Assembly (NCBI GenBank): GCA_016195685.1
Contig: JACPZE010000026.1
Span: 1 to 60,063 of the forward strand
Source: Candidatus Gottesmanbacteria bacterium
GTDB lineage: Bacteria > Patescibacteriota > Microgenomatia > 2-02-FULL-39-11
DNA length: 60,063 nucleotides
Reading direction: 5' to 3'
The notes beneath the pieces were generated by a model, which worked only from the letters and a program-made list of their open reading frames with translations, was not told where the DNA came from and did no database searches. This document shows positions 6,519 through 43,539 of this stretch, one piece after another (the first letter of the stretch is position 1; each line of letters starts with the position of its first letter). The translations under genes were made by a program, and so were the position numbers.

Positions 6519-6522
6519 TTTA

Positions 6523-6677
6523 CGGGTCTTGCATATTATTAAAAATATAAATTTTTCAGACTCTGCAGCTCGCGCTCGGTATATCCCTTACCTTCTGTCC
6601 ATGTACCTTATTATTCTCACGCTCAATTGCAGAGATCTTCAAAATTTCTATTTTTAAACATGATCTCGCGTCACCCG
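6523..6677. repeat. nested palindromic element: family A arms enclosing a family B element
   Basis: Arms cgggtcttg...ctcgcgtcacccg match copies at 39642, 43540 and 55562; inner 6545-6647 matches 26745-26853. Confidence 0.85.
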
Positions 6678-6694
6678 CTATTAAAATAAATGTT

Positions 6695-7495
6695 ATGAAT
6701 GCTATAGAAAAAAAACTAATTCAATTAAAAAAAGAAAATAGATTAGGTCTTATAGCTCATGCAGTTTTGGGTTATCCGAATATGGAGAAAAGTTTAGAGA
6801 TTATAAATAGTTTAATTTCAAATGGCAGCGATTTTTTGGAATTGCAAATACCATTTTCTGATCCGGTAGCGGATGGGGAGACAATTATGAAAGCTTGCGA
6901 AGTAGCCTTGAAAAGCGGAATGAATACAGATGAGGCTTTTGAACTTGTTGGTAATTTAAGAAGGGCTGTTAACGTACCTATATTACTTATGGCTTATTAC
7001 AATACGATTTTTCGATACGGAATAAAGAGATTTTGCAAAAAAGCAAAAGATTTAAGAGTTTCTGGGATAATTGTTCCGGATATTCCACCTGAGGAAGAGA
7101 TAGCAGAGAAATTTATAACTACTTCCTTAGAATATGATATTTATCCGATCCGTGTAGTTTCACCCTCAAGTAGTATTAATAGGTTGGAAATCAATGCACG
7201 ATTTGCCAGAGGATTTGTATATTGTATAAGTCATTTTGGGGTTACTGGAACAAAGACAGTAGTTGACGATCGGCTTACAAGATATTTGCAAAGAGTTAAA
7301 CAAATTATGAAATTACCCGTTGCAGTAGGATTTGGACTTTCAAAAGCAGAGCAGATAGAAGCATTAAAAGGTGTTGCAGATATTGTAATCGTGGGAAGCG
7401 CAATTATCAAAAATTATAATGAGGGAGGAATAAAGCAAGTAAGCTCGTTTATAAAAAGTTTAAAAGAAAGTACAATGGGGAAAGGATATATATGA
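6695..7495 (+). CDS. trpA: tryptophan synthase alpha chain
   Basis: LELQIPFSDPVADGETI, LLMAYYN, IVPDIPPEE, VGFGLS, VGSAII. Confidence 0.96.
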   Translation: MNAIEKKLIQLKKENRLGLIAHAVLGYPNMEKSLEIINSLISNGSDFLELQIPFSDPVADGETIMKACEVALKSGMNTDEAFELVGNLRRAVNVPILLMAYYNTIFRYGIKRFCKKAKDLRVSGIIVPDIPPEEEIAEKFITTSLEYDIYPIRVVSPSSSINRLEINARFARGFVYCISHFGVTGTKTVVDDRLTRYLQRVKQIMKLPVAVGFGLSKAEQIEALKGVADIVIVGSAIIKNYNEGGIKQVSSFIKSLKESTMGKGYI

Positions 7496-8193
7496 GAGGA
7501 TTAGGAACAATTTTCAACGTTATTACTGTACTAATTGGTGGCAGCCTGGGACTTCTTATCGGTTCACGATTTAATAAAGACTTAAATAAAGCAGTGATAG
7601 GGGTAAATGGATTCGTATCAATGGTTATTGGTATTCAGATGGCGTTTACCTCAAAGAATATTTTGATTGTTTTAATAAGTTTGGCATTGGGAGTAATTAT
7701 CGGTGAAATTATTGATATTGAAGGGCGACTGCAGAGGTTTAGTCAACATATGGAAGATAAATTCGGCCGCGGTGAGGAAGGAAAATTTGCCAAAGGATTT
7801 CTGACTACAAGTATCCTTTTTTGTGTGGGGCCACTCACAATACTGGGTTCTTTACAGGACGGACTTACGGGTGATATTAAACTACTTGCAACCAAATCGA
7901 TCCTTGATGGTTTTTCTTCTATAGTATTTGCTTCTGCATTTGGAGTAGGAGTGATGTTTACCATAATAACAATTATAGTCGTGCAGGGGAGTCTTACTCT
8001 TCTTGCTGGTACATTGAGTGGAATACTGACACAAGCAGTAATTGCCGAACTGACCGGAGTTGGTGGTATCATGGTAATATCAATCGGTTTGGGACTGTTA
8101 GAGATAAAAAAATACAAGACTGCCAACATGTTACCGGCACTTTTGATTGCGCCGATAATAGTTATGTTATTAACTTATTTTAAATTTATATGA
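7492..8193 (+). CDS. DUF554-family multi-pass membrane protein
   Basis: GTIFNVITVLIGGSLG start, LFCVGPLTILGSLQDGL, KSILDGFSS; mostly hydrophobic helices. Confidence 0.85.
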   Translation: MRGLGTIFNVITVLIGGSLGLLIGSRFNKDLNKAVIGVNGFVSMVIGIQMAFTSKNILIVLISLALGVIIGEIIDIEGRLQRFSQHMEDKFGRGEEGKFAKGFLTTSILFCVGPLTILGSLQDGLTGDIKLLATKSILDGFSSIVFASAFGVGVMFTIITIIVVQGSLTLLAGTLSGILTQAVIAELTGVGGIMVISIGLGLLEIKKYKTANMLPALLIAPIIVMLLTYFKFI

Positions 8194-9704
8194 CAGATCC
8201 AAAAGTAAAAAAATACAGTGAGGAGTTGAAAAAGTTGGGCATTGAACACGAAATTTTGAAACATCCACAACTGGTTTCAGTTGAGGCGGTACAAAAATAT
8301 CTAGGATATGGTTTGGAAGATGCTGGAGCAACGCTCGTAATTAAGGTAGATGATAAGTTTATTGCCATAATTAGAAGGGGAGATACGAAATTAGATAATG
8401 AAAGAGTAAAAAAATATCTGGGTGTTGCCAATCTTCGAATGGCAAATGAAGAAGAATTTACAAAACTTACCGGAGTTCCAAGCGGTGCGGCTAGCGTCTA
8501 TATTCCCAGTTTGCCGACATATATAGACAAAAAAATCTTTGAAAAAGAATACATAAACGCAGGATCAGGAAGTCTTCTCTATACTTTCCGATACAAGACT
8601 AGTGATTTGAAAAAAATTCCAGGTATCAAAGTAGTTGATTTCACATCGATAGAATCAGAAAAGAAGAGTTCTTTAATTGATATAAAGGGAAAAAGGATTC
8701 TCTCTGGCATAACACCAAGTGGTGATGGCACTTTGCATATCGGTAATTACTTGGGAGCAGTAAAGCAGTTTATTGAATTTGCGAAAAATGGTGATTGTTA
8801 TCTTATGGTTGCGGATCTGCATGCGCTTACAACCATACAAAATAAAGCACAACTACAAAAGAATACGGAAACGTTGATCTTAAACGAACTTGCTTTATTA
8901 GGAAACCTTACAAATATCGTCTTTTTTAGACAATCTGATGTGCCGATGCACGCGGAGTTGACTTGGATCTTAAATAACGTTACTCCTCTGGGACTTTTAC
9001 GTCGCGCTCATGCATACAAAGATAAACTTTCAAAGGACGTGATGGAAGATGAAATAAACTTGGGGCTTTTTAATTACCCGATTCTTATGGCATCAGATAT
9101 ACTACTTTATAAACCAGATTTTGTACCTGTCGGGCGCGATCAGAAACAGCATATAGAAATCTGTCGGGATATTGCGGGAAGATTAAATAAGACATATAAA
9201 TCTGACGTTTTAAAACTTCCGAAACCATATATCCCGGAAGATGTAGCAGTAGTCATGGGTACTGATGGAAAGAGAAAAATGAGTAAATCTTTGGGGAATA
9301 TCATAAGTATATTTGATGATGAAATTGTAATAAAAAAACAAGTGATGAGTACTTATACGGATCCTACAAGAATTCATTCGAATGATCTGGGACATATAGA
9401 AGGGAATATGGTATTTGCATACCTTGATTTCTTTGGTGAAAAAAACAAAGTTTCAGAACTGAAAGATTTATACAAAGAGGGTAAAGTAGCGGATGTGGAA
9501 GTGAAAAATTATTTATTTGAGTCGTTGATGAAAACATTTAAAGATGCGCGAGTCCGATATCAGGAGCTTAAAAATAACCCACAAAAAGTTACAAAGATAT
9601 TATCGAATGGAGCAGATAGAGCTCGAGAGGTAGCTGGAAAAACCATGATGGAGGTGCGGGATGCGATAGGGTTGACCAATAATTACTCGTTCTTCAAATA
9701 TTAA
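8190..9704 (+). CDS. trpS: tryptophanyl-tRNA synthetase with N-terminal YbaK/ProX-like domain
   Basis: HIGN and KMSKS motifs, VPVGRDQKQH. The first ~150 aa resemble YbaK/INS-type editing domains (LRMANEEEF, TGVPSGA, NAGSGS). Confidence 0.92.
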   Translation: MTDPKVKKYSEELKKLGIEHEILKHPQLVSVEAVQKYLGYGLEDAGATLVIKVDDKFIAIIRRGDTKLDNERVKKYLGVANLRMANEEEFTKLTGVPSGAASVYIPSLPTYIDKKIFEKEYINAGSGSLLYTFRYKTSDLKKIPGIKVVDFTSIESEKKSSLIDIKGKRILSGITPSGDGTLHIGNYLGAVKQFIEFAKNGDCYLMVADLHALTTIQNKAQLQKNTETLILNELALLGNLTNIVFFRQSDVPMHAELTWILNNVTPLGLLRRAHAYKDKLSKDVMEDEINLGLFNYPILMASDILLYKPDFVPVGRDQKQHIEICRDIAGRLNKTYKSDVLKLPKPYIPEDVAVVMGTDGKRKMSKSLGNIISIFDDEIVIKKQVMSTYTDPTRIHSNDLGHIEGNMVFAYLDFFGEKNKVSELKDLYKEGKVADVEVKNYLFESLMKTFKDARVRYQELKNNPQKVTKILSNGADRAREVAGKTMMEVRDAIGLTNNYSFFKY

Positions 9705-9768
9705 TACCCATTTCACTTCGCTTGGTTGTCATAGGACTGGAAGTAATATATAATGAATCACTTTCGAC

Positions 9769-10104
9769 ATGAAAGATGTTATTTCTTTTCCTGATTTTGA
9801 CAAATTGGACTTAAGAGTGGGGAGAGTGGTAAGCGCTGAAAGAGTAGAGGGGTCAGACAATCTTATAAGATTATTAGTCGATCTGGGAAAAGAATACGGT
9901 GAGCGGAAAATATTTACCGGAATTGCCAAATGGTATAAACAATCACAGCTTAAAGGGAAGAAATTTGTTTTCCTTGTAAATCTAGCTCCAAAACAAATGA
10001 TGAAAGAGATGAGCGAAGGCATGATTTTATGCGCTGATTTCGACCCAAAAGCAGTTATCATACCGGTTGATAAGAAGATACCAGAGGGAGGAGTTGTTAG
10101 ATAA
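9769..10104 (+). CDS. stand-alone OB-fold tRNA-binding protein (Trbp111/CsaA/MetRS C-terminal-like)
   Basis: FPDFDKLDLRVGRV, VDLG, VNLAPKQMM..SEGMIL. Confidence 0.88.
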   Translation: MKDVISFPDFDKLDLRVGRVVSAERVEGSDNLIRLLVDLGKEYGERKIFTGIAKWYKQSQLKGKKFVFLVNLAPKQMMKEMSEGMILCADFDPKAVIIPVDKKIPEGGVVR

Positions 10105-10130
10105 TTGATCTAATTAACCTCATTTCTAAA

Positions 10131-12026
10131 ATGCCAAATAATAAAAAAGTGAATCCAAAAAACGGGTATCCCAAAAACCTTAAGAAAATCTTCGAGTTTA
10201 AGGTCAACCTGACCCCGAAAAATATATTCCTGTGGCTGATAATTGGTTTTATCATACTTCTCATGTTTGTAGGAAGCCGTGATGTAACTAAACTTTTCCC
10301 AGAGAAGTCTCTTTCTACTTTAGTAGGTGATATTAAAAGTGGACAGGTGAAAAAAGTAGAAGTGATGGATACCAAACTATTGGCAACGTATAAAGATGAT
10401 AAGATTTATTCTTCGCACAAAGAAGGGCAGGATTCTTTTGACAAAACACTTTCAAACTTTGGAGTAGATCCAAAATCTGTGGAAATTAAAGTGAACGATA
10501 CTTCCGGAGGGGCTCTTTGGTTAAATATTTTATCCAACGTACTTCCATTGGTTTTGATGGTCGGGTTTTTCCTTTTTCTTATAAGACAAGCCAGAGGCGC
10601 ACAAGATACTCTTTTTTCTTTTGGGCAGTCCAGGGCAAAACTTTTCTCAAAAGATACTCCAAAAGTAACTTTTGCAGACGTAGCGGGTGTGGACGAAGCC
10701 AAAATGGAATTATCAGAAGTAGTGGATTTTCTGAAAAACCCCCAAAAATACCAAGCACTGGGAGCCAGAACCCCCAAAGGAGTGTTATTGGTAGGTCCCA
10801 GTGGTACTGGAAAGACGCTTTTAGCAAGAGCACTGGCCGGAGAAGCAAAGGCGCCATTTTTCTCCATGGCAGGATCGGAATTTATGGAAATGTTGGTAGG
10901 AGTGGGTGCTTCCCGAGTACGTGATCTTTTCAATACTGCCAAGAAAAATTCTCCAGCTATTATCTTTATCGATGAAATAGATGCAATAGGAAGGATGAGA
11001 TCTGTAGGAGTGATGGGCGGTCATGATGAAAGAGAACAAACTTTAAACCAGATATTAGTAGAGATGGATGGGTTTACTCAAAGTGAAAATGTGATAGTCG
11101 TAGCAGCGACCAACAGAGGTGATTTACTTGATCCGGCTTTACTTCGTCCGGGCCGTTTCGATAGAAGAGTAGTTTTGGATCTTCCCGATATAGAAGGAAG
11201 AAAAGCGATTTTAAATATTCATGTGAAGGGGAAGCCAGTGGCGAAAGATGTGGATTGGGACAAAGTAGCCAAAAGAACAGTTGGTTTTTCTGGTGCGGAT
11301 CTTGCCAATATGTTAAATGAGGCAGCAATTTTGGCGGCTCGTAAAAACCAGACGGAAATACTGATGGAGGATATGGAAGAAGCAGCGACGAAAGTCAAAC
11401 TAGGACCGGAAAAAAAGAGGTTGCAAACCGATTTAGACCGCAAAATGACAGCTTATCATGAAGCTGGTCATGCCATCGTGACACACATACTTCCGAATAT
11501 GGATCCTGTGCATCGAATATCGATAGTCTCTAGGGGTATGGCTTTGGGTTTTACCCTTATTCCTCCACAAAAAGACAGAATCCATGAGACCCGTACCCAT
11601 CTGTTGGAAGAGATTGCTTCCATGTTGGGTGGTCGTGCGGCAGAAGAGTTAATTTTTAATGAAATGACATCCGGAGCATCAAATGACATAGATAAAGCGA
11701 CCATGGTAGCCCGTGAAATGGTAGTGGAGTTTGGTATGTCAACACTTGGGCCGATAAACTTTGGACCAACTATGGATACTACTGAGTGGGGAGGCAGGTA
11801 TTATAACGAAACTCAGGTTTCCCAAGAAATGCAAAGTAAAATTGACCGCGAAGTGAAATTAATAATAGATGATTGTTATAAAAAGGCACAATTAATATTA
11901 AAGAAATTCAAAAATAAACTTGATTTGGTAGCTGAAGCACTCATCAAAAGAGAAACTTTGGAGCGTGAAGATTTCGAAAAACTGATTGGCTACCCCAAAC
12001 CTGCAATAATTCTTGCAAAAGCATAA
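10131..12026 (+). CDS. ftsH: ATP-dependent zinc metalloprotease FtsH
   Basis: Two TM helices, Walker A GPSGTGKT, Walker [24 protein letters not shown]. Confidence 0.97.
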
Positions 12027-12064
12027 AGTACCCCAAAAGCAACTTATGCTAAAATAAACCAACA

Positions 12065-13006
12065 ATGAAACGGCTTGTTGTAATCGATGGTCATGCTATT
12101 TTACATCGTGCCTATCACGCTCTTCCGCCTCTTACCACCTCCAAGGGACTGATTGTCAATGCAGTTTACGGGTTCGCATCGATATTGCTTCGGGTTATTG
12201 AAAGTTTACAACCAACCCATCTGGTAGTTGCTTTTGATACCCCGGAGCCTACTTTTCGAAACAAGTTATTTAAAGATTATCAGATACAAAGGCCGAAAGT
12301 AGATGATGAATTCATTCCTCAAATAAATCTTGTAAAAAAACTTGTACAAGAGATGGGTATCCCCACTTTTGAAAAAGTAGGATATGAGGCAGATGACGTG
12401 ATCGGTACAATTGCGAAGAAAGCAAATGCTGATGAAGTGATTATCGTCACTGGGGATCGCGATATTTTGCAGTTAGTCGATGATAAAGTAGGGGTTTATA
12501 TGCCCGTGAAAGGAATATCTGAATCAAAGCTTTACAAGAAAGAAGAGGTAGAAGAAAAATTTGGAGTAAGTCCATCACAAATAATTGACTATAAGGCTTT
12601 GGTAGGGGATCAATCTGATAATTACCCGGGAGTAGCAGGAATAGGACCTAAAACCGCAAGTACTCTTTTACAACGATTTCAGACTCTTGAACAGATTTAT
12701 AAGAACAAAAAAGATATAGAAAGTGAAAAGGTAAAAAAAGCCCTGGATGACTATCTGAAATCAGCCCAGATGGCAAAAAAACTAGCGACGATTGTTACCG
12801 ATGTACCGCTTGAGTTTAATGTAGATGAATGTAAATTACCCAATCTTGATAAACCCAATATTCATAGATTGTTTGAAGAGTTTGAATTCAGAACTTTGAT
12901 AACTAGGTTATCAGGAAATAAAACACAATCCCGCCGCAGCGGGATCCACGATGCTGTAATCCCGATTAAATCAGGAACAGCATCGGGACAAACGTCTCTT
13001 TTCTAA
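12065..13006 (+). CDS. stand-alone 5'-3' exonuclease / flap endonuclease (PolA N-terminal domain)
   Basis: IDGHAILHRAYHA, YEADDVIG, TGDRD, GDQSDNYPGVAGIGPKTA; no polymerase domain; ends QTSLF. Confidence 0.92.
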   Translation: MKRLVVIDGHAILHRAYHALPPLTTSKGLIVNAVYGFASILLRVIESLQPTHLVVAFDTPEPTFRNKLFKDYQIQRPKVDDEFIPQINLVKKLVQEMGIPTFEKVGYEADDVIGTIAKKANADEVIIVTGDRDILQLVDDKVGVYMPVKGISESKLYKKEEVEEKFGVSPSQIIDYKALVGDQSDNYPGVAGIGPKTASTLLQRFQTLEQIYKNKKDIESEKVKKALDDYLKSAQMAKKLATIVTDVPLEFNVDECKLPNLDKPNIHRLFEEFEFRTLITRLSGNKTQSRRSGIHDAVIPIKSGTASGQTSLF

Positions 13007-13009
13007 TTT

Positions 13010-14134
13010 ATGAAAGTTGCTATTGTCCACGACTACATTAAAGAATATGGAGGGGCGGAGAGGGTATTGGAAGTTCTACACGAAATATGGCCAGAGGCAC
13101 CTGTCTATACCACTGTTTATCTTCCGCAATTCTTAGGTCCTCATATGGAAAGATTTAAAGGCTGGGATATAAGGACTTCCTGGATGCAAAATATCCCATA
13201 TGTCGGGAAACTGATTAGTCCGATTAGACTTGTTACTCCTTGGTATTTTGACAATATAGATTTCCGTCAGTTTGATGTAGTGATAGTTTCTGCCACAGGT
13301 GCTTATTTCCCAAATTTGATTGTAAGAGACCCTGATACTTTACATATCTGCTATTGCCATACTCCCCCTCGTTATCTTTATGGTTATCCGACTGCCAGAA
13401 ACTGGCAAAATAGTGTAATCGGTAGGATTGCAGCAGGATTTTTCAATCACTCACTTCGTCAATGGGATTTTGTTTCTTATCAAAGGCCGGATTATATTAT
13501 TGCTAATTCCTATGAAGTGAAGAGAAGAATCGAAAAGTTTTACAGAAGAGACGCAATGGTAATTTATCCGCCGGTTAATGCTGAGTCAAAAATCAAAAAT
13601 CAAAAATCAAAAGTCCCAGGCAAAAGTAAAAATTATTTCTTGGCTGGAGGTAGATTGGCGAGGGCAAAAAGGATTGATTTAGCTATTGAAGTATGTAATA
13701 GACTCAAGTTTCCACTGAAGGTTTTTGGCCGGGGTTTTGCTGACTATGATAGTGAGCTTAGGAGAATTGCCGGTCCGACGATAGAATTTTTAGGAGAAGT
13801 AAGTGAGCAAGAACTTTCTAAGTTATACGCTGGTGCAACAGCACTTATTTACCCGTCTGAACAAGAGGATTTTGGTATCATGCCGGTTGAGGCGATGACT
13901 TTTGGTACTCCTGTGATCGCGTTAAACCAAGGAGGAGTGAAGGAAACAGTGATAGATGGTAAAACCGGTGTGTTTTTTGATGAACCAACGGTTAAAAGCC
14001 TAATGGAAGCTATGAAACGATTCAACAAACAAATAATCATGAGTGAAAACTGTATAGAACAAGCGAAAAAATTCAGTAAAGAGAGATTCAAGAAAGAAAT
14101 TACTAATTTTGTTAATTCGAAAATTAAATTATAA
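13010..14134 (+). CDS. GT4 glycosyltransferase
   Basis: KVAIVHDY..GGAERVL, EDFGIMPVEAM. Confidence 0.9.
   Translation: MKVAIVHDYIKEYGGAERVLEVLHEIWPEAPVYTTVYLPQFLGPHMERFKGWDIRTSWMQNIPYVGKLISPIRLVTPWYFDNIDFRQFDVVIVSATGAYFPNLIVRDPDTLHICYCHTPPRYLYGYPTARNWQNSVIGRIAAGFFNHSLRQWDFVSYQRPDYIIANSYEVKRRIEKFYRRDAMVIYPPVNAESKIKNQKSKVPGKSKNYFLAGGRLARAKRIDLAIEVCNRLKFPLKVFGRGFADYDSELRRIAGPTIEFLGEVSEQELSKLYAGATALIYPSEQEDFGIMPVEAMTFGTPVIALNQGGVKETVIDGKTGVFFDEPTVKSLMEAMKRFNKQIIMSENCIEQAKKFSKERFKKEITNFVNSKIKL
13586..13613 (+). repeat. heptamer tandem array (tcaaaaa x3 + tcaaaag) inside the GT4 CDS
   Basis: Read directly; encodes SKIKNQKSK. Confidence 0.85.
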
Positions 14135-14164
14135 TTTACTGATCCCCGAAGTTAAAATTAATGT

Positions 14165-15001: not shown

Positions 15002-15025
15002 GATTTCTGCTATAATACGCTGTAG

Positions 15026-15772: not shown

Positions 15773-16875
15773 TTTTATCCAGTCTTTCTTTACAAAATTT
15801 TCGCAAGTTTCCCAAAAAAATTTTTCATTTTTCATCAAATCAAACGATCATTATAGGGCCAAATGGAATAGGAAAGACCAATATTCTTGAGGCGATTTTT
15901 CTACTGGCGACAGGCAGAAGTTTCCGGGCGGAAAATGACAGGGAGATGATCGAATTCGGTAAAGAAACAGGAAGAGTATCGGCCGGAGTAAATATATCGA
16001 CTGATGAGAATACCGATCTGGAAGTTTTATTGACGTCCGGAATGGTAATAGGAATAAAGACCCAACTAAAACAATATAAATTAAACGGAGTGCCCAAGCG
16101 GATGTCGGATTTTGTGGGAATCTTAAAAGTCGTACTTTTCTGGCCGCAGGATCTGGAACTCGTGACTGATTCTCCATCTGTAAGGCGCCATTATCTGGAT
16201 TTTGTTTTAATGCAGGTAGATAGAGAATACAGAAGAAATTTACATTCATATGAAAAAGGATTGCGACAGAGAAATAAAGTACTAGAAGCTATACGGGATA
16301 CCGGTGCGCATCATCATCAGTTACTCTTTTGGAATCAATTGCTTATAAAAAGCGGGGAGCATATTATAAAGAAAAGAGAGGAATATATAGATTATATTAA
16401 TAACCATCAACGATCCCCGGCCTCGCCCGGCACGGGGCGAGTAACCATCAACGATCAACAGCTGCGTTACCAATTATTTTATGATAAAAGTATTATTTCC
16501 CAAGACAGATTAGATCAATACAGTCGAGAAGAAGTGGCGTCGGCAAATACTCTGGTTGGACCACATAGGGACGATTTTAGTTTTTCTCTGAGTTCAACCC
16601 CTGGGATTGAGGCTAGAAATCTTTCACACTACGGAAGCAGGGGAGAGCAAAGACTAGGTATACTTTGGCTGAAATTGAGAGAATTGGCATATATTAAAGA
16701 AACAACAAGAGAGAAACCAATATTACTTTTGGATGATATATTTTCTGAACTGGATCATGAACGCAGGAAAATAATTTTTGATATTATTGGTAATCAACAA
16801 ACTATCATGACTACAACTGACTTACATCTTTTGGAAAAAGCCAAAATTGAAAATGCAAAGATGATAGAATTGTAA
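15769..16875 (+). CDS. recF: DNA replication/repair protein RecF
   Basis: LQNFR, Walker A GPNGIGKTN, GPHRDD, GSRGEQR, LLLDDIFSELD. Confidence 0.95.
   Translation: MILSSLSLQNFRKFPKKIFHFSSNQTIIIGPNGIGKTNILEAIFLLATGRSFRAENDREMIEFGKETGRVSAGVNISTDENTDLEVLLTSGMVIGIKTQLKQYKLNGVPKRMSDFVGILKVVLFWPQDLELVTDSPSVRRHYLDFVLMQVDREYRRNLHSYEKGLRQRNKVLEAIRDTGAHHHQLLFWNQLLIKSGEHIIKKREEYIDYINNHQRSPASPGTGRVTINDQQLRYQLFYDKSIISQDRLDQYSREEVASANTLVGPHRDDFSFSLSSTPGIEARNLSHYGSRGEQRLGILWLKLRELAYIKETTREKPILLLDDIFSELDHERRKIIFDIIGNQQTIMTTTDLHLLEKAKIENAKMIEL
16401..16463 (+). repeat. heptamer array interrupted by a GC hairpin, inside recF
   Basis: taaccatcaacgatc at 16401-16415 and 16442-16456 flanks ctcgccc-ggcacg-gggcgag. 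Confidence 0.8.
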
Positions 16876-16878
16876 GTG

Positions 16879-17044
16879 CGGGTCCTGATAATTATAAGCT
16901 CGCATATAAATTTTTCTAGCTTACAATATTACAGTATTCCGTTAGTGCGTTGCCATTCTTATTTTATCTAAGAATCTTATTAGTTGATCCTGATTTATTT
17001 ACTTGATTTAAGCGTCCCGTGTGTGCGCTTCAAAAAATTCATAT
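16879..17044. repeat. degenerate family A/B composite element
   Basis: cgggtcctg at 16879, atataaatttttc at 16904-16916, gcgtcccgt at 17012, cttcaaaaaattcatat at 17028-17044. Confidence 0.6.
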
Positions 17045-17077
17045 TGCTGCGCTTCTTAACTTGGTTATGTAATAATA

Positions 17078-18462: not shown

Positions 18463-19304
18463 AAGAAATTTAAAAGAATTATGCCGAGCACACAGAGAAG
18501 GGAACCAGCTAGTTTTTTGCTGATGTTTTTTCTTTCTCCAAGAAATAGTATTCCTATCAACACACTAGATAGTAAAAAAACAGTCGTAAAATTTACATTC
18601 GCTACAGCTATTTTGCTTCTTTGATAGGTCCAAAGAAGAAGATAAAATGCCGATACCGCAGTAAACCTAGAGAGTATTATTTTTTTCTTATATTTTCCAA
18701 AAATTGTTTTAATATCCTTATAAGTTTTGGGAATAAAAAGCAGTATAGAAACGATAAAAAAATCAAAAATAAAAACAAAGGATAAAGGATCAACGAGCGA
18801 TAGCGCAAGTTTTTGAAAAACAGCTGAAATGCCAAAAGATAAACCAACAACCAATGCTAAGAAGAGTCCAAAAGAGAGTCTGAGCTTTTTGCCTTCATAG
18901 AAAATGATTAATATGCCACAAATTATTGCCAAAAAACCGACAATATTGATCATATTTATTTTTTCGTGTAAAAATACTATTCCCGATGTGAAGGTGACAA
19001 GAAGACTTGATTGTAAAAGTATTGTGATGTTGGATATATCTTCAGTTTTGTAAGCTTTGATCAGAGATAAATTTCCAAGGAATGTGGCTAGAACAGCAAG
19101 AAAAATATATAAATAGACAATAGATAATTTAGGAAATGATCCAAATAATAGAAAAGGAATTAGAAAAAGTAGTCCGTTGAGTGAAAGCTGAAGAAAAAAA
19201 TAGGAGAAAGAAGAATATTTTTTTTCAGTTATACTTTTATTTATGCTTTCTGTAACTCCTGAGGAAATACCAGCAAGTATTGAGACAAAATAGACAAAAA
19301 TCAT
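18459..19304 (-). CDS. EamA/DMT-family transporter
   Basis: About 10 TM helices in two repeats. Reads on the minus strand (CAT at 19302-19304; stop at 18459-18461). Confidence 0.82.
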   Translation of the reverse strand: MIFVYFVSILAGISSGVTESINKSITEKKYSSFSYFFLQLSLNGLLFLIPFLLFGSFPKLSIVYLYIFLAVLATFLGNLSLIKAYKTEDISNITILLQSSLLVTFTSGIVFLHEKINMINIVGFLAIICGILIIFYEGKKLRLSFGLFLALVVGLSFGISAVFQKLALSLVDPLSFVFIFDFFIVSILLFIPKTYKDIKTIFGKYKKKIILSRFTAVSAFYLLLWTYQRSKIAVANVNFTTVFLLSSVLIGILFLGERKNISKKLAGSLLCVLGIILLNFF

Positions 19305-19564
19305 TCATCCAGCCTTTCAACGATCTTGGTTAATTGGTAGGTGATAATTACTGCAAGGATAGTAATAAGGATTGCGTAGATAAGAAGTGAGATAACACCG
19401 CTACCAACTGAAAGATATTTTTTCACATATTCGTTCACGAATTCCTGTATTACATTATTCCAAGCCAAAGCGGCAACCAGTCCAAAACCTGATGTGGTCA
19501 AAGTAATCATTTGCTTCACAATTGCCGTATGAAGTTTTCTTTCGCTTGGATTTTTGTCCGCCAT
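19301..19564 (-). CDS. DUF5654-family small membrane protein
   Basis: TSGFGLVAALAWNNVIQ motif; two TM helices. Confidence 0.8.
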   Translation of the reverse strand: MADKNPSERKLHTAIVKQMITLTTSGFGLVAALAWNNVIQEFVNEYVKKYLSVGSGVISLLIYAILITILAVIITYQLTKIVERLDE

Positions 19565-19583
19565 AATGAGATAATTATACCAA

Positions 19584-20633
19584 ATGTACTCTCCAAAATT
19601 TTCAATTACGAATAAAATCCTAAAAAATATTGGCCTGATTGAGGCCTCCCGGGAAGTGATTATGAATGCCCCGCTTGTGCCTGCTTATGAAAAGAAGTTT
19701 CGGGAGGAAGCAATTGTAAGGACAGTCCATCATGGTACTCATATCGAAGGAAATGAATTAAATATTACGGAAGCCTCAGCTGTACTAAAAGGTGAACAAA
19801 TCGTCGGCCGTGATCGGGATATACAAGAGGTCATAAATTATAGAAATGTCATAAATTTTTTGGATTTTGTGGCGACAGGGGAGGTGTCACAGGGGAAAAT
19901 TACTGAAGCAGTGGTGAAGAAGATTCACGCTCTGACGGTCGATAAATTATTACCTGATGAACAATGCGGTGAGTATCGCAAGACGCAGGTTGTAGTAAAA
20001 AATTCAATCACAGGTGAAATTACTTTTCGTCCTCCGCCGGCTATTGAAGTACCTTATCAGGTGTCGGACTTTTTAGAGTGGATAAATAGCCTCAAAAAGG
20101 ATGAGATGCATCCAGTCCTTGCAGCCGGTATCACTCATTATGAACTTGTCAAAATCCATCCTTTTGTCGATGGAAACGGTAGGATGGCTCGTGCCACGGC
20201 TACTTTGGTTCTATTTTTGGAGAATTATGATATAAAAAAGTTTTTTTCTCTTGAGGAGTATTACGATAAAGATGCTTCTCGTTACTACGAAGCGCTCAAA
20301 TCAGCTTCCGGTGGTGATTTGAGTCACTGGACGGAATATTTTACCGAAGGCTTAGCAATTGAAATTACACGTGTAAAAGAAAAGGTATTGCGTCTTTCTA
20401 CAGATGTACATCTGAAAGAAAAGCTGGGTGGAAAGCAGGTATTTTTAACCGAGAGGCAGATTGCGATAATGGAATATATCCAAAGAGTGGGATATCTGAA
20501 TAATGAAGGTTTTACAGATCTTTTCCCTAAAATATCAGAGGATACAGTGCTTCGTGATCTTCATGATCTTTTGCAAAAAGGAATTATCAAAAAAGAGGGA
20601 AGGACAAAGGCAGCTAGGTATAGGTTAAGGTAA
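19584..20633 (+). CDS. Fic-domain protein with C-terminal winged HTH
   Basis: Fic motif HPFVDGNGRMAR; N-terminal GTHIEGN resembles the inhibitory helix motif; C-terminal SEDTVLRDLHDL. Confidence 0.92.
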   Translation: MYSPKFSITNKILKNIGLIEASREVIMNAPLVPAYEKKFREEAIVRTVHHGTHIEGNELNITEASAVLKGEQIVGRDRDIQEVINYRNVINFLDFVATGEVSQGKITEAVVKKIHALTVDKLLPDEQCGEYRKTQVVVKNSITGEITFRPPPAIEVPYQVSDFLEWINSLKKDEMHPVLAAGITHYELVKIHPFVDGNGRMARATATLVLFLENYDIKKFFSLEEYYDKDASRYYEALKSASGGDLSHWTEYFTEGLAIEITRVKEKVLRLSTDVHLKEKLGGKQVFLTERQIAIMEYIQRVGYLNNEGFTDLFPKISEDTVLRDLHDLLQKGIIKKEGRTKAARYRLR

Positions 20634-20634
20634 T

Positions 20635-22407
20635 ATGATTTTTAAACGACTTTCTGAATATTTAGGGAAACTTGAAGAAACCACTCTTCGCAACAAAATC
20701 ACACAGATTCTAGCGGAACTTTTCCATGAATCCACCCCGGATGAGATAGGAAAACTTTGCTATCTGTTGCAAGGGAGGGTAGCGCCACTTTTTACCGCAA
20801 TAGAATTCGGCATGGCTGACAAAATGATGATAAAAGCGATAACGTATGGAATGGGAGTTGAAGATGGAAGGGTATTAAAAGTATTTCAGGAGGAAGGAGA
20901 TTTGGGGAAAGCGGTGGAAAAAATCAAAAACCAAAAATCAACAACCAAAAATACATATAAAAAATTAAATATTAATAAAGTCTATGAAATTTTATATCAA
21001 GTTGCTACATCAGGTGGATCTGGTTCCCAGGATAAAAAAATTACTCTTCTTGGTAATTTATTACACGATGTAGATGCTCTCTCTGCACGATACATAGTTC
21101 GGATTACTCTAGCCAAACTGCGTATGGGATTTTCTGACATGACAATACTGGATAGTCTTTCCTGGATGATTAAAGGCTCCAAACAATTAAGACCGGAGAT
21201 AGAGAGAGCTTATAACGTCCGCCCTGATTTGGGTTTTATAAGTGAAACCGTGCAGAAACATGGTATCGAAGGGCTAAAATCTACAGAACCTAAAGTAGGT
21301 ATCCCCATACTTATGGCAAGAGCTGAGAGGATGGCAAACAGCGAAGATATAATATTAAAAATTGGCAAATGTGCTATCGAACCCAAATACGACGGGTTTC
21401 GTCTGCAAATCCATTACGACGGAAAAGATGTCAAATTATTTTCCCGAAATTTGGAAAATGTTACAAATATGTATCCGGATATAATTAAAGGCATAAAAAA
21501 ACAAATTCACAAGCCGGCAGTTATTGAGGGAGAGGCGATAGGAATAAATTTAAAAACAGGTGAATATCTGCCTTTTCAAGAAACAGTTCAGAGAAAGAGG
21601 AAATATGACGTTGAACTAAAAGCCAAAGAAATCCCTCTTCATCTTTTTGCTTTTGATTGTTTGATTGTAGGTAGAGAAAATTTGTTGGTTAAATCTTACG
21701 TTGAAAGAAGAAATTATTTGGAAAAGTTGATAGGTAAAGGAGAGACAGTGTATATAGCCCAGTTGGAAGTTGTTTCTAACCCAATTAGACTTGAGGAATT
21801 ATTTCAGGATGCGGTTACAAGAGGGATTGAAGGTGTGATGGCAAAAAAGCTCGAAGGAATTTATCGTGCTGGAGCAAGGGATTTTAACTGGATAAAATAC
21901 AAAAGAAGTTATTCCGGTAAACTTGCCGATACTATAGATGCAGTAGTGATGGGTTATGACTTGGGGCAGGGGAAAAGGTCCGGATTTGGGATAGGAGATT
22001 TTCTGATTGGAGTATATGATGAAAAACAGGATAAATTTGGTACTGTCACAAAAATTGGTACGGGTCTCACAGATGAGGAGTGGAGGGAAATAAAAATAAG
22101 AAGTGACAAATTAAAAGTCAAAACCCAGCCCAAAAATTATGAAGTGGATAAAATCATGAGTTGTGACATCTGGATTACACCTCAGATTGTGGTAGAGATA
22201 AGAGCTGATGAGATTACCCGTTCGCCTGTACATACAGCAGGAAGAGTTATGGGCCCGTCTGAATCTGGAAATTCCAAAGAGGTAAAAGTCGCAGGTTTTG
22301 CTCTGAGATTTCCCCGTCTTGAAAAGTTTCGAGACGACAAAAAGCCACAAGATGCAACAACCCTATCTGAAGTTGAAAAGATGTATAAACTGCAAGAGAA
22401 GAAATGA
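20635..22407 (+). CDS. ATP-dependent DNA ligase (archaeal-type)
   Basis: N-terminal DNA-binding domain, KYDGFR, EGE, FAFD, EGVMAK, WIKYK, LRFPR. Confidence 0.93.
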   Translation: MIFKRLSEYLGKLEETTLRNKITQILAELFHESTPDEIGKLCYLLQGRVAPLFTAIEFGMADKMMIKAITYGMGVEDGRVLKVFQEEGDLGKAVEKIKNQKSTTKNTYKKLNINKVYEILYQVATSGGSGSQDKKITLLGNLLHDVDALSARYIVRITLAKLRMGFSDMTILDSLSWMIKGSKQLRPEIERAYNVRPDLGFISETVQKHGIEGLKSTEPKVGIPILMARAERMANSEDIILKIGKCAIEPKYDGFRLQIHYDGKDVKLFSRNLENVTNMYPDIIKGIKKQIHKPAVIEGEAIGINLKTGEYLPFQETVQRKRKYDVELKAKEIPLHLFAFDCLIVGRENLLVKSYVERRNYLEKLIGKGETVYIAQLEVVSNPIRLEELFQDAVTRGIEGVMAKKLEGIYRAGARDFNWIKYKRSYSGKLADTIDAVVMGYDLGQGKRSGFGIGDFLIGVYDEKQDKFGTVTKIGTGLTDEEWREIKIRSDKLKVKTQPKNYEVDKIMSCDIWITPQIVVEIRADEITRSPVHTAGRVMGPSESGNSKEVKVAGFALRFPRLEKFRDDKKPQDATTLSEVEKMYKLQEKK

Positions 22408-23108
22408 AAATTTCAGTTGTCATTCCAGCTTATAACGAAGAGAAATATATTGCGAAAACCCTTGAATCGGTTAAAAATGCTGATAGGGATGATAATCCAG
22501 TGGAAATACTAGTTATAGATGGAGGGTCGGGAGATAAAACTGCAGAAATAGCCAAAAAATTTGGCGCCAAGGTAGTAGTAATTCCTCACCGTGGGATAGG
22601 TTTTGCTCGTCAGAAAGGTATAGAAAATGCATCAGGAGAAATAATCATCTATACCGATGCAGACTCAATAGTCCCATATGATTGGATGAAAGTACACGTT
22701 GATGCTTTATTAAAATCTGATGTCGTATTATCCTACGGGCCATTCAAAGTAAAAGACGGTAGTTTTGCCTATAAATTGTTCATCAATTATTTACAATATT
22801 ACGGATGGTTTATAACACATTATATTTTCAATACGATACTCTCTGTAGGTCAAAATACAGCTTTTTGGAGGGAAAAGGCACTGTTCGTAGGAGGATATGA
22901 CACTAAATTAGGAATAATGGAAGATATAGACTTTTCCCAAAGGTTGTCTAAGCAAGGTAAGGCGATATATCATCCAAACCTTATAGTTTACGCTTCAGGC
23001 AGAAGATCCAAAGAGGGATGGAGATTTTTTACCCGTACCGCATTGATCTCAATAAAATATTTTTTATTTGGCGATAAAAATTTGGGGGGTTTTCCCGATT
23101 TCCGCTGA
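22404..23108 (+). CDS. GT2 glycosyltransferase
   Basis: ISVVIPAYNEE, DGGSGD, TDAD, EDIDF. Confidence 0.9.
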   Translation: MKISVVIPAYNEEKYIAKTLESVKNADRDDNPVEILVIDGGSGDKTAEIAKKFGAKVVVIPHRGIGFARQKGIENASGEIIIYTDADSIVPYDWMKVHVDALLKSDVVLSYGPFKVKDGSFAYKLFINYLQYYGWFITHYIFNTILSVGQNTAFWREKALFVGGYDTKLGIMEDIDFSQRLSKQGKAIYHPNLIVYASGRRSKEGWRFFTRTALISIKYFLFGDKNLGGFPDFR

Positions 23109-23153
23109 ATTTTCTATATTCTCTTCCCTGTGATATGATTTAAACCAAATTTA

Positions 23154-24416
23154 ATGGCAAAAGTACTATTTTTCCCAGCTGGTGTAGGTCTTGCGCATGT
23201 TGGTAGAACTATTGAAGTGGCACATGCTTTACAAAAAGAAAACATTGATATCATATTTGGAGCAGGATGTGATGCTCCGGCTATTTTAGAAAAAGAAAAA
23301 TTACCGTATGAGATTATTCCGGAATTTGATCGTTCTACTTATGATAACAAAATTAAGCAGAATAATTGGTCAATCTATACCATCCGACTAATCAATAAAT
23401 TTGTTAAAAAAGAAGTGGAATTAGTTCGAAGTTATAAACCGGACTTGATTGTCAATGATGTAAGACTGACAGCAAAAATTACCTCAATTCTTACAGGTAT
23501 TCCTCTGGTATCCATAACCAATGTAGATGCATCAAAGTACTATGATTACTCCAAAATCAGAATGCCTTACAAAACTTATTTAGGTAAATTTTTACCGCCA
23601 AGAGTCCTATCATTTTTTGAGAAAGAAAAAGGTCAAAAAGTTTTAAGGAAAGTAAGTTTCAAGTTTTTGCAAACATTATTTTTACGTGAGCTTTTTAAAT
23701 TCAATATAATTCTTGGCAGGTATGGGAGAAGGCCATTTATTGATCCATTTGATCTTTTGACGGGGGATCTGACAATTCTCACTGATATACCACAATTTAG
23801 GCCTATTAGAAAGCTTCCTGAAAGCTTTAAACTAGTGGGCCCAATTTTTTGGAAAGGCGTCAAAAAATTACCCAAGTGGAGTACCGAAATCGATTCTAAA
23901 AAGAAAATTATCTACGTGACGGCTTCCGGTACGGGAGATAAAGATTTATTTATAAATATTTTAAAATATCTCAAAGATACTTCTTATACGGTTATCGCAA
24001 CATGTGGTAATACTTTGTCACAAAAAGAAGTAAAAATAAAAAATCCAAGACTGTTTTTGACAGATTATTTGCCGGGAGAGTGGATCATGAAACGAGCGGA
24101 TTTAGTAATATTTCCAGGCGGAAATGCTACAGCCTATCAGGCTCTTAGTTTTGGAGTACCACAAATAGGTACCCCCCTTCATCTGGATCAGGAGGACAAT
24201 ATGAATCAGTTAGTTCGGCTCGAAACTGGCATTATGTTAAATCCGAGAAAAGATTTTAATCGCAAAGTTCTTATAAATTCCGTAGAACATATTATGAGAA
24301 ATAAATCTTACAGAGATAATGCATTAAAGATAAGTAGGGAAATGAAGAAATATCATGGAGCAAAACAGGCGGCAAAAGAAATAATAAATTTTCTAAGGAT
24401 TCGTTCGTCCCGCTAA
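23154..24416 (+). CDS. GT-B glycosyltransferase (GT1/GT28-like)
   Basis: GVGLAHVGR, FPGGNATAYQALSFGVP, HLDQ. Confidence 0.8.
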   Translation: MAKVLFFPAGVGLAHVGRTIEVAHALQKENIDIIFGAGCDAPAILEKEKLPYEIIPEFDRSTYDNKIKQNNWSIYTIRLINKFVKKEVELVRSYKPDLIVNDVRLTAKITSILTGIPLVSITNVDASKYYDYSKIRMPYKTYLGKFLPPRVLSFFEKEKGQKVLRKVSFKFLQTLFLRELFKFNIILGRYGRRPFIDPFDLLTGDLTILTDIPQFRPIRKLPESFKLVGPIFWKGVKKLPKWSTEIDSKKKIIYVTASGTGDKDLFINILKYLKDTSYTVIATCGNTLSQKEVKIKNPRLFLTDYLPGEWIMKRADLVIFPGGNATAYQALSFGVPQIGTPLHLDQEDNMNQLVRLETGIMLNPRKDFNRKVLINSVEHIMRNKSYRDNALKISREMKKYHGAKQAAKEIINFLRIRSSR

Positions 24417-24478
24417 GCGGGACGACTACGGCCCTTTGTGCCACGCCGATATATTCAAACGATTATCGGATGCGGCCT
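24393..24478 (+). repeat. two-hairpin dispersed element (family E), copy 1
   Basis: Aligns along its length with the reverse complement of 51855-51939; supplies the last codons and stop of the GT-B gene. Confidence 0.8.
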
Positions 24479-24544
24479 AAGCAGTAAAAATATACATTAA
24501 TTCAGTACTGTTTATGGTAAAATAATTAAGTTTTTTCAAATTAC

Positions 24545-25354
24545 ATGAAGCCGTTTTTTTCAATAATAATTCCTACCCTTAATGAAGGAAAATATTTACC
24601 TACGATTCTTCAATCTCTAGCTAAACAGACGTTCAAGAATTTTGAACTTATCTTGGTAGACGGATACTCCAAAGACAAGACACTGGAAGTATTTAACAGT
24701 TTCAAGAATCGATTGCCTTTTTCAGTTTCTATTTTAAGTGACAAAACCAATGTGGGACTTCAGAGAAATATCGGTGCAGATAAGGCGAGGGGAAGTTATC
24801 TAATCTTCTTTGATGCAGATGTAGAGATAGGCCCTACATTTCTTGAAGAAATACATGTGCAAGCGATAAAAAAACCATTTCTGCTGGCTACGACCTGGAT
24901 GACTGCGGACAGTAAAAACCCTGTTGATCAGTTGATGGTGAAATTAGCTAACTTCGGATGGGAGATAGCAAAAAGCGTGAACCAACCATTTTTGGGTGGA
25001 TTTAACGTAATCATAAAAACTGAAACTTTTAAGATTTTAAAAGGTTTTCGTGAGGATTTAACTATCGGTGAAGATCGTGATTTAGCTAAACGCGCTCTTG
25101 CGAATAATATTGAATTGGCGATTTTAACTGAACCGAAATTAGTAGTTTCTCTTCGCCGATTTCGCTCAGAAGGAACATTAGAGGTATTACGCAAATATAC
25201 AAAAGCAGAAGTTTATGCATTTATAAATGGGCCTATCACAACTCAACTGTTTGATTACCCCATGGGTGGGCATGTACATAACAAAAAAAGAAAAAATAGT
25301 AGTTTTAAATCTTTGAAAAAAATTATAAAAAAATTCAATAAACTATTATCATAA
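24545..25354 (+). CDS. GT2 glycosyltransferase
   Basis: FSIIIPTLNE, DGYSKD, FFDAD, GEDRDL. Confidence 0.9.
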   Translation: MKPFFSIIIPTLNEGKYLPTILQSLAKQTFKNFELILVDGYSKDKTLEVFNSFKNRLPFSVSILSDKTNVGLQRNIGADKARGSYLIFFDADVEIGPTFLEEIHVQAIKKPFLLATTWMTADSKNPVDQLMVKLANFGWEIAKSVNQPFLGGFNVIIKTETFKILKGFREDLTIGEDRDLAKRALANNIELAILTEPKLVVSLRRFRSEGTLEVLRKYTKAEVYAFINGPITTQLFDYPMGGHVHNKKRKNSSFKSLKKIIKKFNKLLS

Positions 25355-25357
25355 ACT

Positions 25358-26725
25358 ATGCAAGTAATAACTGATCTGCAAATCCATTCCAAATATTCCA
25401 GAGCGGTTTCTCCACAGATGACAATCCCCTTTATATGGCAGTGGGCCAAAAGAAAAGGAATAGGACTTATGGCTACCGGTGATTGGACTCATCCTTTGTG
25501 GAATAGGGAGATCAAGGCAAATTTGGAGGAAACAGGGAATGGACTACTTAAATTAAAAAACAATGAAACAATGAAACAATGGAACAATGGAGAGATGGGT
25601 CCGTTATTTCTCCTAGCGACAGAAATCTCAAGCATTTATTCCCAAGGTGGGAAGGGCAGGAGAATCCATACCCTTATCTGGGCGCCCACTCTTGATACTG
25701 CTGATAAAATCAACAAAGAGCTTATAAGACGCGGTGCCAATCTGTATTCCGACGGGCGTCCAATAATAGGACTTAGTAGTATCCAGGTGGCAGAGTTAGT
25801 TTTCTCAATTGACCCCAAATGTTTAATAATTCCTGCTCATGCCTGGACACCCTGGTTTTCTATGTATGGTAGCCAATCCGGATTTGACTCGATAGATGAA
25901 TGTTACGGCCAATTTGGAGAAAATATCTATGCAATTGAGACAGGATTATCGAGTGATCCTTCTATGAATTGGAGGATAAAAGAGTTGGATAATAGAAGTA
26001 TTGTTTCTTTTTCTGACGCACATTCTGGTCCAAAGCTGGGTAGGGAAGCAACAGTTTTTGAATTGCCAGAATTAAGTTATAAAAACATACGGGAAGCAAT
26101 CATGAAGCCTGGCATGGATAATTCACAAATTTCCCAGGGAGCAAAAATTGCATTTACGACAGAGTTTTATCCGGAGGAAGGTAAATATCATTACACAGGG
26201 CACAGAGATTGCGGAGTAAAACAAACGCCTGTTGAAACGAAACAAAAAGGCACAACCTGTCCAGTTTGCGGTAGAAAACTTACCGTTGGAGTGATGCATA
26301 GAGTAGAGGAATTATCAGGAAGAAGCGAGGAAGATTTAAAACTTAAAACTTCCGAAATAGCAGGAACAAAACTGAAAGGCATTGTTTCAGCTTTGTTTCC
26401 AAATAGACCCGCCTTTATCAAACTTGTTCCCTTACAAGAAATAATAGCCGAAGTATTTGGAAGCTTACCAACGACACAGAAGACTCAAGATGAGTATAAT
26501 AAGTTGGTTGATAATTTCGGCAGCGAATTTAAGATTTTACTGGAAACTTCTCTTGAGGATATAACTAAAATATCAGGACCCAAAATCGCAGATGCCCTTC
26601 ACAAGGTACGCATAGGGGATATATTTATCGACCCAGGATACGATGGAGTGTTTGGGAAAGTGAAAATTTGGAGTGAAGAAAAAAAAGAAGAGGATTCACA
26701 GAAAGAGCAGATGAGTTTATTTTAA
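25358..26725 (+). CDS. endonuclease Q-family PHP protein
   Basis: DLQIHSKYSRA, TGDWTHP, HAWTPW, SDAHS, zinc ribbon HRDCG..CPVCG; ends QMSLF. Confidence 0.85.
   Translation: MQVITDLQIHSKYSRAVSPQMTIPFIWQWAKRKGIGLMATGDWTHPLWNREIKANLEETGNGLLKLKNNETMKQWNNGEMGPLFLLATEISSIYSQGGKGRRIHTLIWAPTLDTADKINKELIRRGANLYSDGRPIIGLSSIQVAELVFSIDPKCLIIPAHAWTPWFSMYGSQSGFDSIDECYGQFGENIYAIETGLSSDPSMNWRIKELDNRSIVSFSDAHSGPKLGREATVFELPELSYKNIREAIMKPGMDNSQISQGAKIAFTTEFYPEEGKYHYTGHRDCGVKQTPVETKQKGTTCPVCGRKLTVGVMHRVEELSGRSEEDLKLKTSEIAGTKLKGIVSALFPNRPAFIKLVPLQEIIAEVFGSLPTTQKTQDEYNKLVDNFGSEFKILLETSLEDITKISGPKIADALHKVRIGDIFIDPGYDGVFGKVKIWSEEKKEEDSQKEQMSLF
25561..25592 (+). repeat. octamer tandem array inside the EndoQ CDS
   Basis: caatgaaa caatgaaa caatggaa caatggag; encodes NNETMKQWNNGE. 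Confidence 0.8.
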
Positions 26726-26744
26726 TCTATTTATAAATAACAGA

Positions 26745-26853
26745 ATATAAATTTTTCAGACTCTGCAGCTTCCTTCGTCGCTTTTGCTCCTCAGGACAAG
26801 CGCGTTTACCCTGAGTTTTACGAAGGGCTCAATTGCAAAGGTCTTCAAAATTT
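26745..26853. repeat. family B palindromic element carrying an inverted pair of family C REP-like units
   Basis: Left arm 26/26 and right arm 25/27 identical to 6545-6647; the cargo differs. Confidence 0.88.
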
Positions 26854-26894
26854 ATATTTCTTGTTAAAATGAGCGCGAATCATTCATAGATTTT

Positions 26895-43515: not shown

Positions 43516-43539
43516 TATTTAAGCTCGCATTATGATTTA

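Follow-up and report, generated by a model that had tools for sequence, protein, structure and literature searches.

Two alternative cores between shared inverted arms in family B, a low-copy hairpin repeat of a Candidatus Gottesmanbacteria genome

We analyzed a stretch of 60,063 nucleotides (contig JACPZE010000026.1 of assembly GCA_016195685.1, here contig C32; hereafter the window) from a Candidatus Gottesmanbacteria genome that carries two copies of a hairpin-forming repeat of about 110 bases, which we call family B. The assembly (G000) comprises 1.19 Mb in 46 contigs with 36% G+C, and its host is an uncultivated groundwater bacterium of the candidate phyla radiation (CPR) of the Microgenomatia type, a class in which genomes measure 0.5-1.8 Mb. 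One B copy lies between trpB and trpA and the other, at 26745, between a 455-aa gene and a GNAT (Acetyltransf_6) gene. Comparisons were made with a class set of 401 genomes from 294 genera and a family set of 21 genomes; the relatives named below are G001, G004, G007-G010, G012, G013, G017, G041 and G392, numbers with C or L denote contigs or stretches, and the relatives that share the elements were also deposited as Candidatus Gottesmanbacteria. Each B copy consists of a left arm, a core and a right arm, and the two copies in the window differ in their cores (core 1 in B1, core 2 in B2):

6540 to 6655, + strand: B1 copy (family B, core 1), with left arm 6545-6570, core 6571-6620 (50 nt), right arm 6621-6647 and a few paired flanking bases.
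26742 to 26861, + strand: B2 copy (family B, core 2), with left arm 26745-26770, core 26771-26826 (56 nt) and right arm 26827-26853.
26771 to 26826, + strand: core 2, an inverted doublet of C units, the left unit at about 26771-26801 and the right unit at about 26802-26826.

An earlier note on this DNA had described near-identical arms that are imperfect inverted repeats of each other, around unrelated interiors of 50 and 56 nt, the second of which it took for an inverted pair of family C units. All four of these descriptions held up. The left arm (ATATAAATTTTTCAGACTCTGCAGCT) is identical at 26/26 positions between 6545-6570 and 26745-26770, and the right arm at 25/27 between 6621-6647 and 26827-26853. 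When the left arm is aligned with the reverse complement of the right arm, the local score is 23, against a shuffle mean of 10.7, and 0 of 2000 shuffles were as good. The two cores, in turn, align no better than shuffled sequence (score 12, shuffle mean 12.5, p=0.67). Both window copies fold into long hairpins (z about -4.8), and in the B2 copy at 26742-26861 the inverted termini reach AGAATAT...ATATTTCT. The hairpin stem is kept, with 17 arm pairs nearly invariant and two pairs showing compensatory changes. We also noticed that 6-bp palindromes crowd the arms: AAATTT and CTGCAG in the left arm at 6545-6570, and CAATTG, AGATCT and AAATTT in the right arm at 6621-6647.

A profile search of the genome and its relatives returned eight good B copies in three genomes, with B1 and B2 as the only two core types. 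B1 occurs four times in G000 (C32:6545, C8:31080, C7:24389-24491 on the minus strand, and C14:9783-9885) and once each in G001 and G012; B2 occurs once in G000 (26745) and once in G012. G017 holds a B remnant. Any copy at all is confined to 4 of the 21 family genomes. Far from being a one-off cargo, the core of the 6545 copy is seen again in five further copies. Homology of the cores extends over three genera for B1 and two for B2, B1 copies of different genera are 82-90% identical, and a TCCAT motif in core 1 is invariant. Core lengths are equally uniform (50, 50, 50, 50, 50 and 51 nt for B1; 56 and 56 nt for B2). The earlier note had proposed checking whether the boundaries are constant over all arm pairs, and they are: the junctions between arm and core, ...CA(G/A)(C/T)T | core | (G/A)CTCAA..., are the same in all eight copies. 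These copies are dispersed singletons in unrelated gene contexts, not arrays. The sequence of the arms tracks genome and locus, not core type; the left arm of the B2 copy at 26745 is identical at 27/27 positions to that of the B1 copy at 6545 and at only 20/27 to that of the B2 copy in G012. A contig scan with the left arm gave G001 and G012 as the only true matches, those in Desulfocapsa, SAR86 and Helicobacter being rejected as chance matches in coding sequence, and a JGI metagenome scan with the right arm gave 0 matches. A small reverse-strand open reading frame (ORF) in core 1 (ATGGA...) was likewise rejected, as its length and sequence vary among copies.

One orthologous position carries both cores. 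In G000, the B1 copy on C14 lies inside dinB and is read in frame, within an ORF of 432 aa whose IMS domains are intact; compared with the DinB proteins of G004, G007, G009 and G010, four genera in which the site is empty, this protein has 54 extra residues after SVDEAYLDLSF. At the same position G012 has a truncated dinB remnant (a pseudogene) that carries the B arms with core 2. The arms of these two copies are identical at 25/27 and 30/32 positions, and both copies share the upstream 12 nt and an arm variant, TTTTTCGG, seen in no other B copy. The length of either core leaves a remainder of 2 when divided by 3, so the frame read downstream is the same with both. An orthologous site with B1 in one genome and B2 in another suggests that the core was replaced between fixed arms. 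On this comparison, the simplest reading would be a single ancestral insertion, the core of which was later replaced in one lineage, and such an in-place swap appears to have happened, but rarely. Among 5.8 billion proteins, the only insert-bearing DinB homologue found was the G000 protein itself. Loss of in-frame stops in the dinB copy was set aside as weak evidence, since only the C7 and C8 copies would have stops in that register and those at 6545 and in G001 would not.

Core 2 belongs to a repeat of its own. The C unit measures 25-30 nt, and in the doublet form it reads ...CCTTCG-N-CTCAGGRYAAR / YTTACCCTGAG-N-CGAAGG. Strict C units number 12 in G000, against 0-2 in shuffles, and the halves of core 2 match 40 of the 401 class genomes (36 of 294 genera) with 83-100% identity over 22-51 nt. 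Doublets stand alone at G012:C71 and G000:C38, lie between tRNA genes in G041, and fill the shells of two further families, namely family A at C24:3122, C25:1734 and C25:30722 and family D at C30:1447-1528. These other doublets and the class-wide matches argue that core 2 is another resident repeat, similar to the repetitive extragenic palindromic (REP) type, and not foreign cargo. Motifs like CCCTGAGC...CGAAGGG are widespread among uncultivated bacteria. We also observed a C-unit-like sequence, GTTTACCCTGAGCTTGCCGAAGGG, in a viral contig (IMG/VR; L120 12110-12145).

From the two window copies, the earlier note had inferred that cargo is exchanged at a fixed point, as in a cassette or spacer-like architecture, and had set this against the ordinary decay of a miniature inverted-repeat transposable element (MITE), in which more copies would form a continuum of divergence with variable boundaries. 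Under such decay the interiors would be diverged forms of one sequence and the boundaries would only seem sharp. A weak, diverged B-like copy at G000 C20:30648-30750 fits this picture, as do the interiors of family D, which do diverge gradually while their termini stay conserved. Against it, the cores align at the shuffle mean, with no residual similarity, each core is conserved across genera, core 2 is recognisable as a doublet of another repeat, and the junctions are constant. We therefore regard ordinary decay as very improbable. What stands of the earlier inference is replacement at a fixed point, on the evidence of the junctions and of dinB; the cassette or spacer part does not, as there are two cores only, both conserved, at dispersed sites. 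That note had also proposed to search the interiors against the genome, phages and plasmids. In the genome core 1 recurs and core 2 is a resident repeat; phage and plasmid searches with both B elements gave no match for either core, and left-arm matches in viral contigs, which fall within coding sequence, were rejected as due to chance. A CRISPR, TIGR or integron-like system, that is, an adaptive array with the interiors as acquired spacers or cassettes, resembles family B in its superficial layout only, that of conserved flanks around a variable middle. Such a system is hardly credible here, with dispersed singletons, arms that are inverted and not direct, two core types, no phage or plasmid counterpart, viral matches that are due to chance, and one copy translated inside dinB.

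Presence and absence among relatives were seen at three sites, namely trpB/trpA, the 26745 slot and dinB. At the first of these, the B1 copy sits inside a family A shell:

6514 to 6693, + strand: family A shell around the B1 copy, with A-left TTTACGGGTCTTGC at 6519-6532 and A-right GTCACCCGCTATTAAA at 6670-6685.
6507 to 6513, + strand: left TATGAAT of a 7-bp direct repeat; it carries the end of trpB.
6694 to 6700, + strand: right TATGAAT; it provides the trpA start codon.

The whole trpB-trpA spacer in G000 is this 180-nt composite insertion, A(B1). In G007 and G009 the trpB stop and the trpA start overlap (ATGA), which represents the empty site, and TATGAAT is present in single copy at the empty junctions of G009 (AAAATATGAATACG) and G007. 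The 7-bp duplication looks like a DDE-type footprint; it was the one convincing case in a systematic flanking-repeat search of A copies. The trpB-trpA junction of G013 (L089 2740-2850, G013:C32) has short tandem-like repeats, ACCTAATTAACCTAATTGACCTAATTT... and TTAGAAATTAGAATAATTAGAAATT, and no hairpin element. G008 and G010 have no element in the 26745 slot. In G012 (L083 555-665, G012:C178), the counterpart of window positions 26726-26894 holds an unrelated palindrome, GATTCGCTGAGGTCGGCCATGAC...GCATGACCTCCCCGCGAATC, and the downstream GCGAATCATTCATAGATYTTATG is conserved in G000 and G012.

Family A and family D show the same layout of a shell around alternative interiors. Their other copies in the window are:

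16897 to 17054, + strand: family D copy; a separate family of about 158 nt, one of four full-length copies that are 82-91% identical.
39631 to 39729, + strand: canonical family A copy, with the same shell as at 6519-6685 and the usual 52-nt core.
43529 to 43627, + strand: canonical family A copy (context).
55557 to 55676, + strand: family A copy with an enlarged 90-nt core (context).

The family A shell, CGGGTCCTGC...GTCACCCG, surrounds at least six core types in 24 copies, and two of these shells enclose B1 (6519-6685 and C8:31050). Positions 16904-17044, which had been described as a decayed third copy of family B, belong instead to family D and are not detected by the B profile at E<=10. 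The two families have in common only the terminal 13-16 nt or so, (C)ATATAAATTTTTC / AAAAWTTYATAT; this terminus, ATATRAATTTTT with its mirror (also given as ATATAAATTTTT), is common to B1, B2 and D, and D is otherwise unlike B. Further D copies were found in G012 and in a metagenome, and a second metagenome scan with the D terminus as query gave two D1-type copies only. D shells hold a D1 core, a C doublet, an A-like element together with what is left of D1, or other hairpins, and those in G012 and on G000 C30 include cores other than that of the window copy. Some D shells also show nested insertion with no replacement (G012 L104, G000 C39, and L107 compared with L108). Shells of A, B and D are each found with a C doublet and with other cores. 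A fixed shell around alternative cores is thus a general, nested-hairpin architecture in this genome, in which both nested insertion without loss and complete replacement occur.

The A, B and D elements are oriented in accord with the sign of the local GC skew in 27 of the 32 cases (p=1e-4), as against only 14 of 24 in accord with the strand of co-directional flanking ORFs, and where skew and gene strand are in conflict the element follows the skew in 7 of 7 instances. The eight B copies all match the sign of the skew, one of them by a narrow margin, and all eight elements in the window are on the + strand, two of them between minus-strand genes; the window copies concerned are A at 6523, 39642, 43540 and 55562, B at 6545 and 26745, and D at 16897. 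An orientation that follows the GC skew points to a process linked to replication and specific for one strand, as with IS200/IS605. It is the signature reported for IS200/IS605 elements that target the lagging strand (PMC6006769). As mechanistic clues, this Y1-like skew signal and the DDE-like 7-bp duplication are in conflict.

These observations bear on a dedicated exchange of cores, in which the shells of B, D and A would be reusable landing pads. A strand-specific enzyme of the HUH/Y1 type acting on single-stranded DNA would, during replication, excise one palindromic core and insert another at the same fixed junction in the centre of the extruded hairpin. If true, the landing pads would amount to a miniature non-coding cassette system and would jointly explain why the junctions are constant, why sister genera have different elements in one slot and why orientation is locked to GC skew. 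Besides the eight constant junctions and the skew, such an exchange is consistent with the C doublets that directly follow AGCT in the B2, D2 and C25:30722 shells, with the different palindrome of G012 in the 26745 slot, and with Y1 transposases, which are common in the class (239/401 genomes) and in the family (16/21, including G012 and G001). We nevertheless consider it rather unlikely. G000 is without a Y1 transposase, family B has two core types only, the 7-bp duplication at trpB/trpA is unexpected for HUH transposition, and neither an excision product nor an empty shell was seen. The sole Y1 gene examined beside a C unit, a candidate REP-associated tyrosine transposase (RAYT) in G392, was rejected because it is flanked by its own, different repeats (GGGACGGTCC).

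The orientation bears equally on a function for the host, under which the hairpin would be a structured element of RNA or DNA, for instance one that stabilises mRNA, is processed or binds a protein, with a functional basal stem and an apex free to vary, its copies arising by duplication. The conserved stem with its two compensatory pairs, the 82-90% identity between genera and the invariant TCCAT of core 1 could be understood in this way, as could four copies that lie in co-directional gene contexts with the left arm first (three intergenic, one inside dinB). A host function is still improbable in our judgment, given that elements are oriented with GC skew and not with gene strand, that the coding sequence of dinB contains one copy and a dinB pseudogene a second, that sites are empty in most relatives and copies limited to 4/21 family genomes, and that the neighbouring genes are unrelated. 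Nor did Rfam yield a covariance-model match at gathering or E-value thresholds (the sole result was a chance plant-miRNA match, E=0.52), and tRNA and tmRNA searches found nothing.

On balance, and with moderate confidence, we propose that family B is a palindromic repeat of Gottesmanbacteria-type CPR bacteria that forms hairpins, is non-autonomous and low in copy number, and is built like a REPIN (an inverted doublet of REP-like units) or a foldback MITE and assembled as a mosaic from nested shells. Two inverted arms of about 27-32 nt would surround the core, and B1 and B2 would be old subfamilies with the same arms, B1 with a 50-nt asymmetric core and B2 with an inverted doublet of the class-wide, REP-like C unit in its place. 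New small palindromes may settle at the centre of a hairpin already present, or take the place of that centre, after which the composite would spread. One original replacement would have given rise to B2; where arms and cores later came to disagree, as in the swap at dinB, the cause could be rare recombination or gene conversion between copies by way of their common arms, or else a fresh insertion into the centre of the hairpin. An enzyme supplied in trans, now not detectable in G000, would provide the mobility. As to its kind, family B joins the mosaic palindromic repeats as a new member with few copies (like REPIN, MITE, the bacterial interspersed mosaic element (BIME) and the Rickettsia palindromic element (RPE)); it is selfish DNA of a broadly known kind and not a cassette or spacer system. 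We found no account of such elements in CPR bacteria in the literature searched.

Several observations weigh against the proposal of a REPIN- or MITE-like repeat moved in trans. G000 has no match to any of the four transposase families searched, Y1_Tnp (PF01797), DDE_Tnp_1, DDE_3 and rve. G012, which shares B and D and has a much more fragmented assembly, has 10 Y1_Tnp, 3 DDE_Tnp_1, 1 DDE_3 and 4 rve matches, and the three transposase contigs examined there are without the ATATRAATTTTT terminus; all matches to this terminus are short elements, and no autonomous partner with the same ends was found. An orientation biased to GC skew is not expected of a symmetric cut-and-paste MITE, and no clear flanking direct repeat was found around stand-alone B copies. 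Furthermore, an identity of 82-90% between B1 copies of different genera needs, for neutral DNA, continued mobility, transfer or selection; arms of about 27-32 nt are short for gene conversion of the RecA type; and only one orthologous pair, that at dinB, documents a swap.

MITE families may share terminal inverted repeats around unrelated interiors, and nested MITEs are known. Family B is similar to them in its conserved terminal inverted repeats, unrelated interiors, nesting, presence and absence among relatives and lack of coding capacity, and it differs in that no partner insertion sequence was found, that B has no clear target duplication and that its orientation is biased to GC skew. RPEs are said, in work of Ogata and colleagues from 2000, to insert in frame in housekeeping genes and to be translated as an extra loop. 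The palindromic insert of 54 residues in an otherwise intact DinB is of this kind; however, its sequence is unrelated, it comes from another phylum and only one of the five B copies in G000 is intragenic, and we know of no description of RPEs with alternative cores between fixed arms. Small dispersed repeats of Nostoc are reportedly embedded in other repeats and mini-transposons without an identified transposase (Elhai and colleagues, in 2008), and this nesting of very small repeats resembles ours. The attC sites of integrons are imperfect inverted repeats with a variable centre that recombine as a folded single strand. Their likeness to family B is superficial, as there is no cassette array, no gene cargo and, by inspection, no GTTRRRY core (an integrase was not searched for). 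CRISPR and TIGR arrays, which have tandem direct repeats and variable spacers that match mobile elements, differ from family B, in which the arms are inverted, the copies single and the cores without phage or plasmid match.

In construction, family B resembles REPINs and REP/BIME mosaics (Bertels and Rainey, 2011, PMC3116915; Ton-Hoang et al., 2012, PMC3333891; Nunvar et al., 2010, PMC2817692), in which inverted doublets of short units also form a long hairpin. As in REPINs, the spacer is less constrained than the units, and compensatory changes preserve the hairpin. Core 2 has the form of an inverted REP-like doublet in its own right, and Y1 transposases are common in the class. As in BIME and BOX mosaics, different recurrent modules are combined in varied arrangements. 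Unlike REPINs, which number tens to hundreds, family B has a very low copy number (five copies and one diverged copy in G000, alongside about 12 strict C units and about 25 A copies). Unlike in REP-RAYT systems, G000 is without a RAYT and neither B nor C units were seen to flank one, and unlike REPs, the B arms are AT-rich and are not themselves GC-rich hairpins. Palindromes as preferred landing sites are also known from REP hairpins that serve as insertion targets (Tobes and Pareja, 2006, PMC1525189), and two alternative short segments at one locus in related genomes from small dimorphic variable segments, for which replacement or a hot spot of insertion has been offered as the explanation (Touzain et al., 2010, PMC2884548). 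The incomers in those cases are full insertion sequences or unspecified segments, whereas here target and incomer are both tiny non-coding hairpins.

The small genomes of CPR bacteria are usually said to hold little mobile DNA. G000 has several interlocking families of tiny hairpin repeats, yet none of the four transposase families tested. Within this set family B is a clean small case, in which a core can be replaced while the arms stay, as seen at an orthologous site, and in which a hairpin element can persist, translated, inside the gene of a DNA-repair polymerase (dinB). The link between orientation and GC skew provides a testable lead to a single-strand, replication-linked mechanism. For annotators of CPR genomes, it is relevant that the repeats make intergenic regions longer, separate genes that would otherwise overlap (trpB/trpA) and introduce spurious loops into proteins.

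A few smaller observations concern the A, D and C elements. A solo family A left-arm remnant, GTGCGGGTCCTG, lies at 16876-16896, right after the stop codon at 16873-16875, and abuts the D copy of the window; a D copy on C14 has the same flank in degenerate form. The D-shell copies L107 (G012:C139) and L108 (G012:C188) have the same composite core, and about 25 nt (TGGTTCGGCTTCGCTCACCACAGGG) are present in L107 only, as a nested micro-insertion or a deletion. A family A copy at G000 C14:3804-3874 is directly upstream of sequence that translates to ...LLGDGEMAEGSVWEA, which we take to be transketolase/DXS-like; a long + strand ORF spans the copy, which may be another in-frame intragenic one. The nadA gene is bracketed by repeats (G000 C8:29904-31190, L005 325-1610), with a D copy at the 3' end of the gene and, in the promoter region between the divergent nadA and nadB, an A(B1) composite. 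Besides core 2, the window holds two C units:

56008 to 56030, + strand: single C unit (context).
41641 to 41660, - strand: C unit (context).

Elsewhere in G000, single C units at C18:20281-20302, C20:77947-77976 and C25:15839-15866 (minus strand) end in CGAAGGGAGGTGA, 5-8 nt before an ATG, and their 3' ends overlap a GGAGG positioned like the ribosome-binding site of the downstream ORF.

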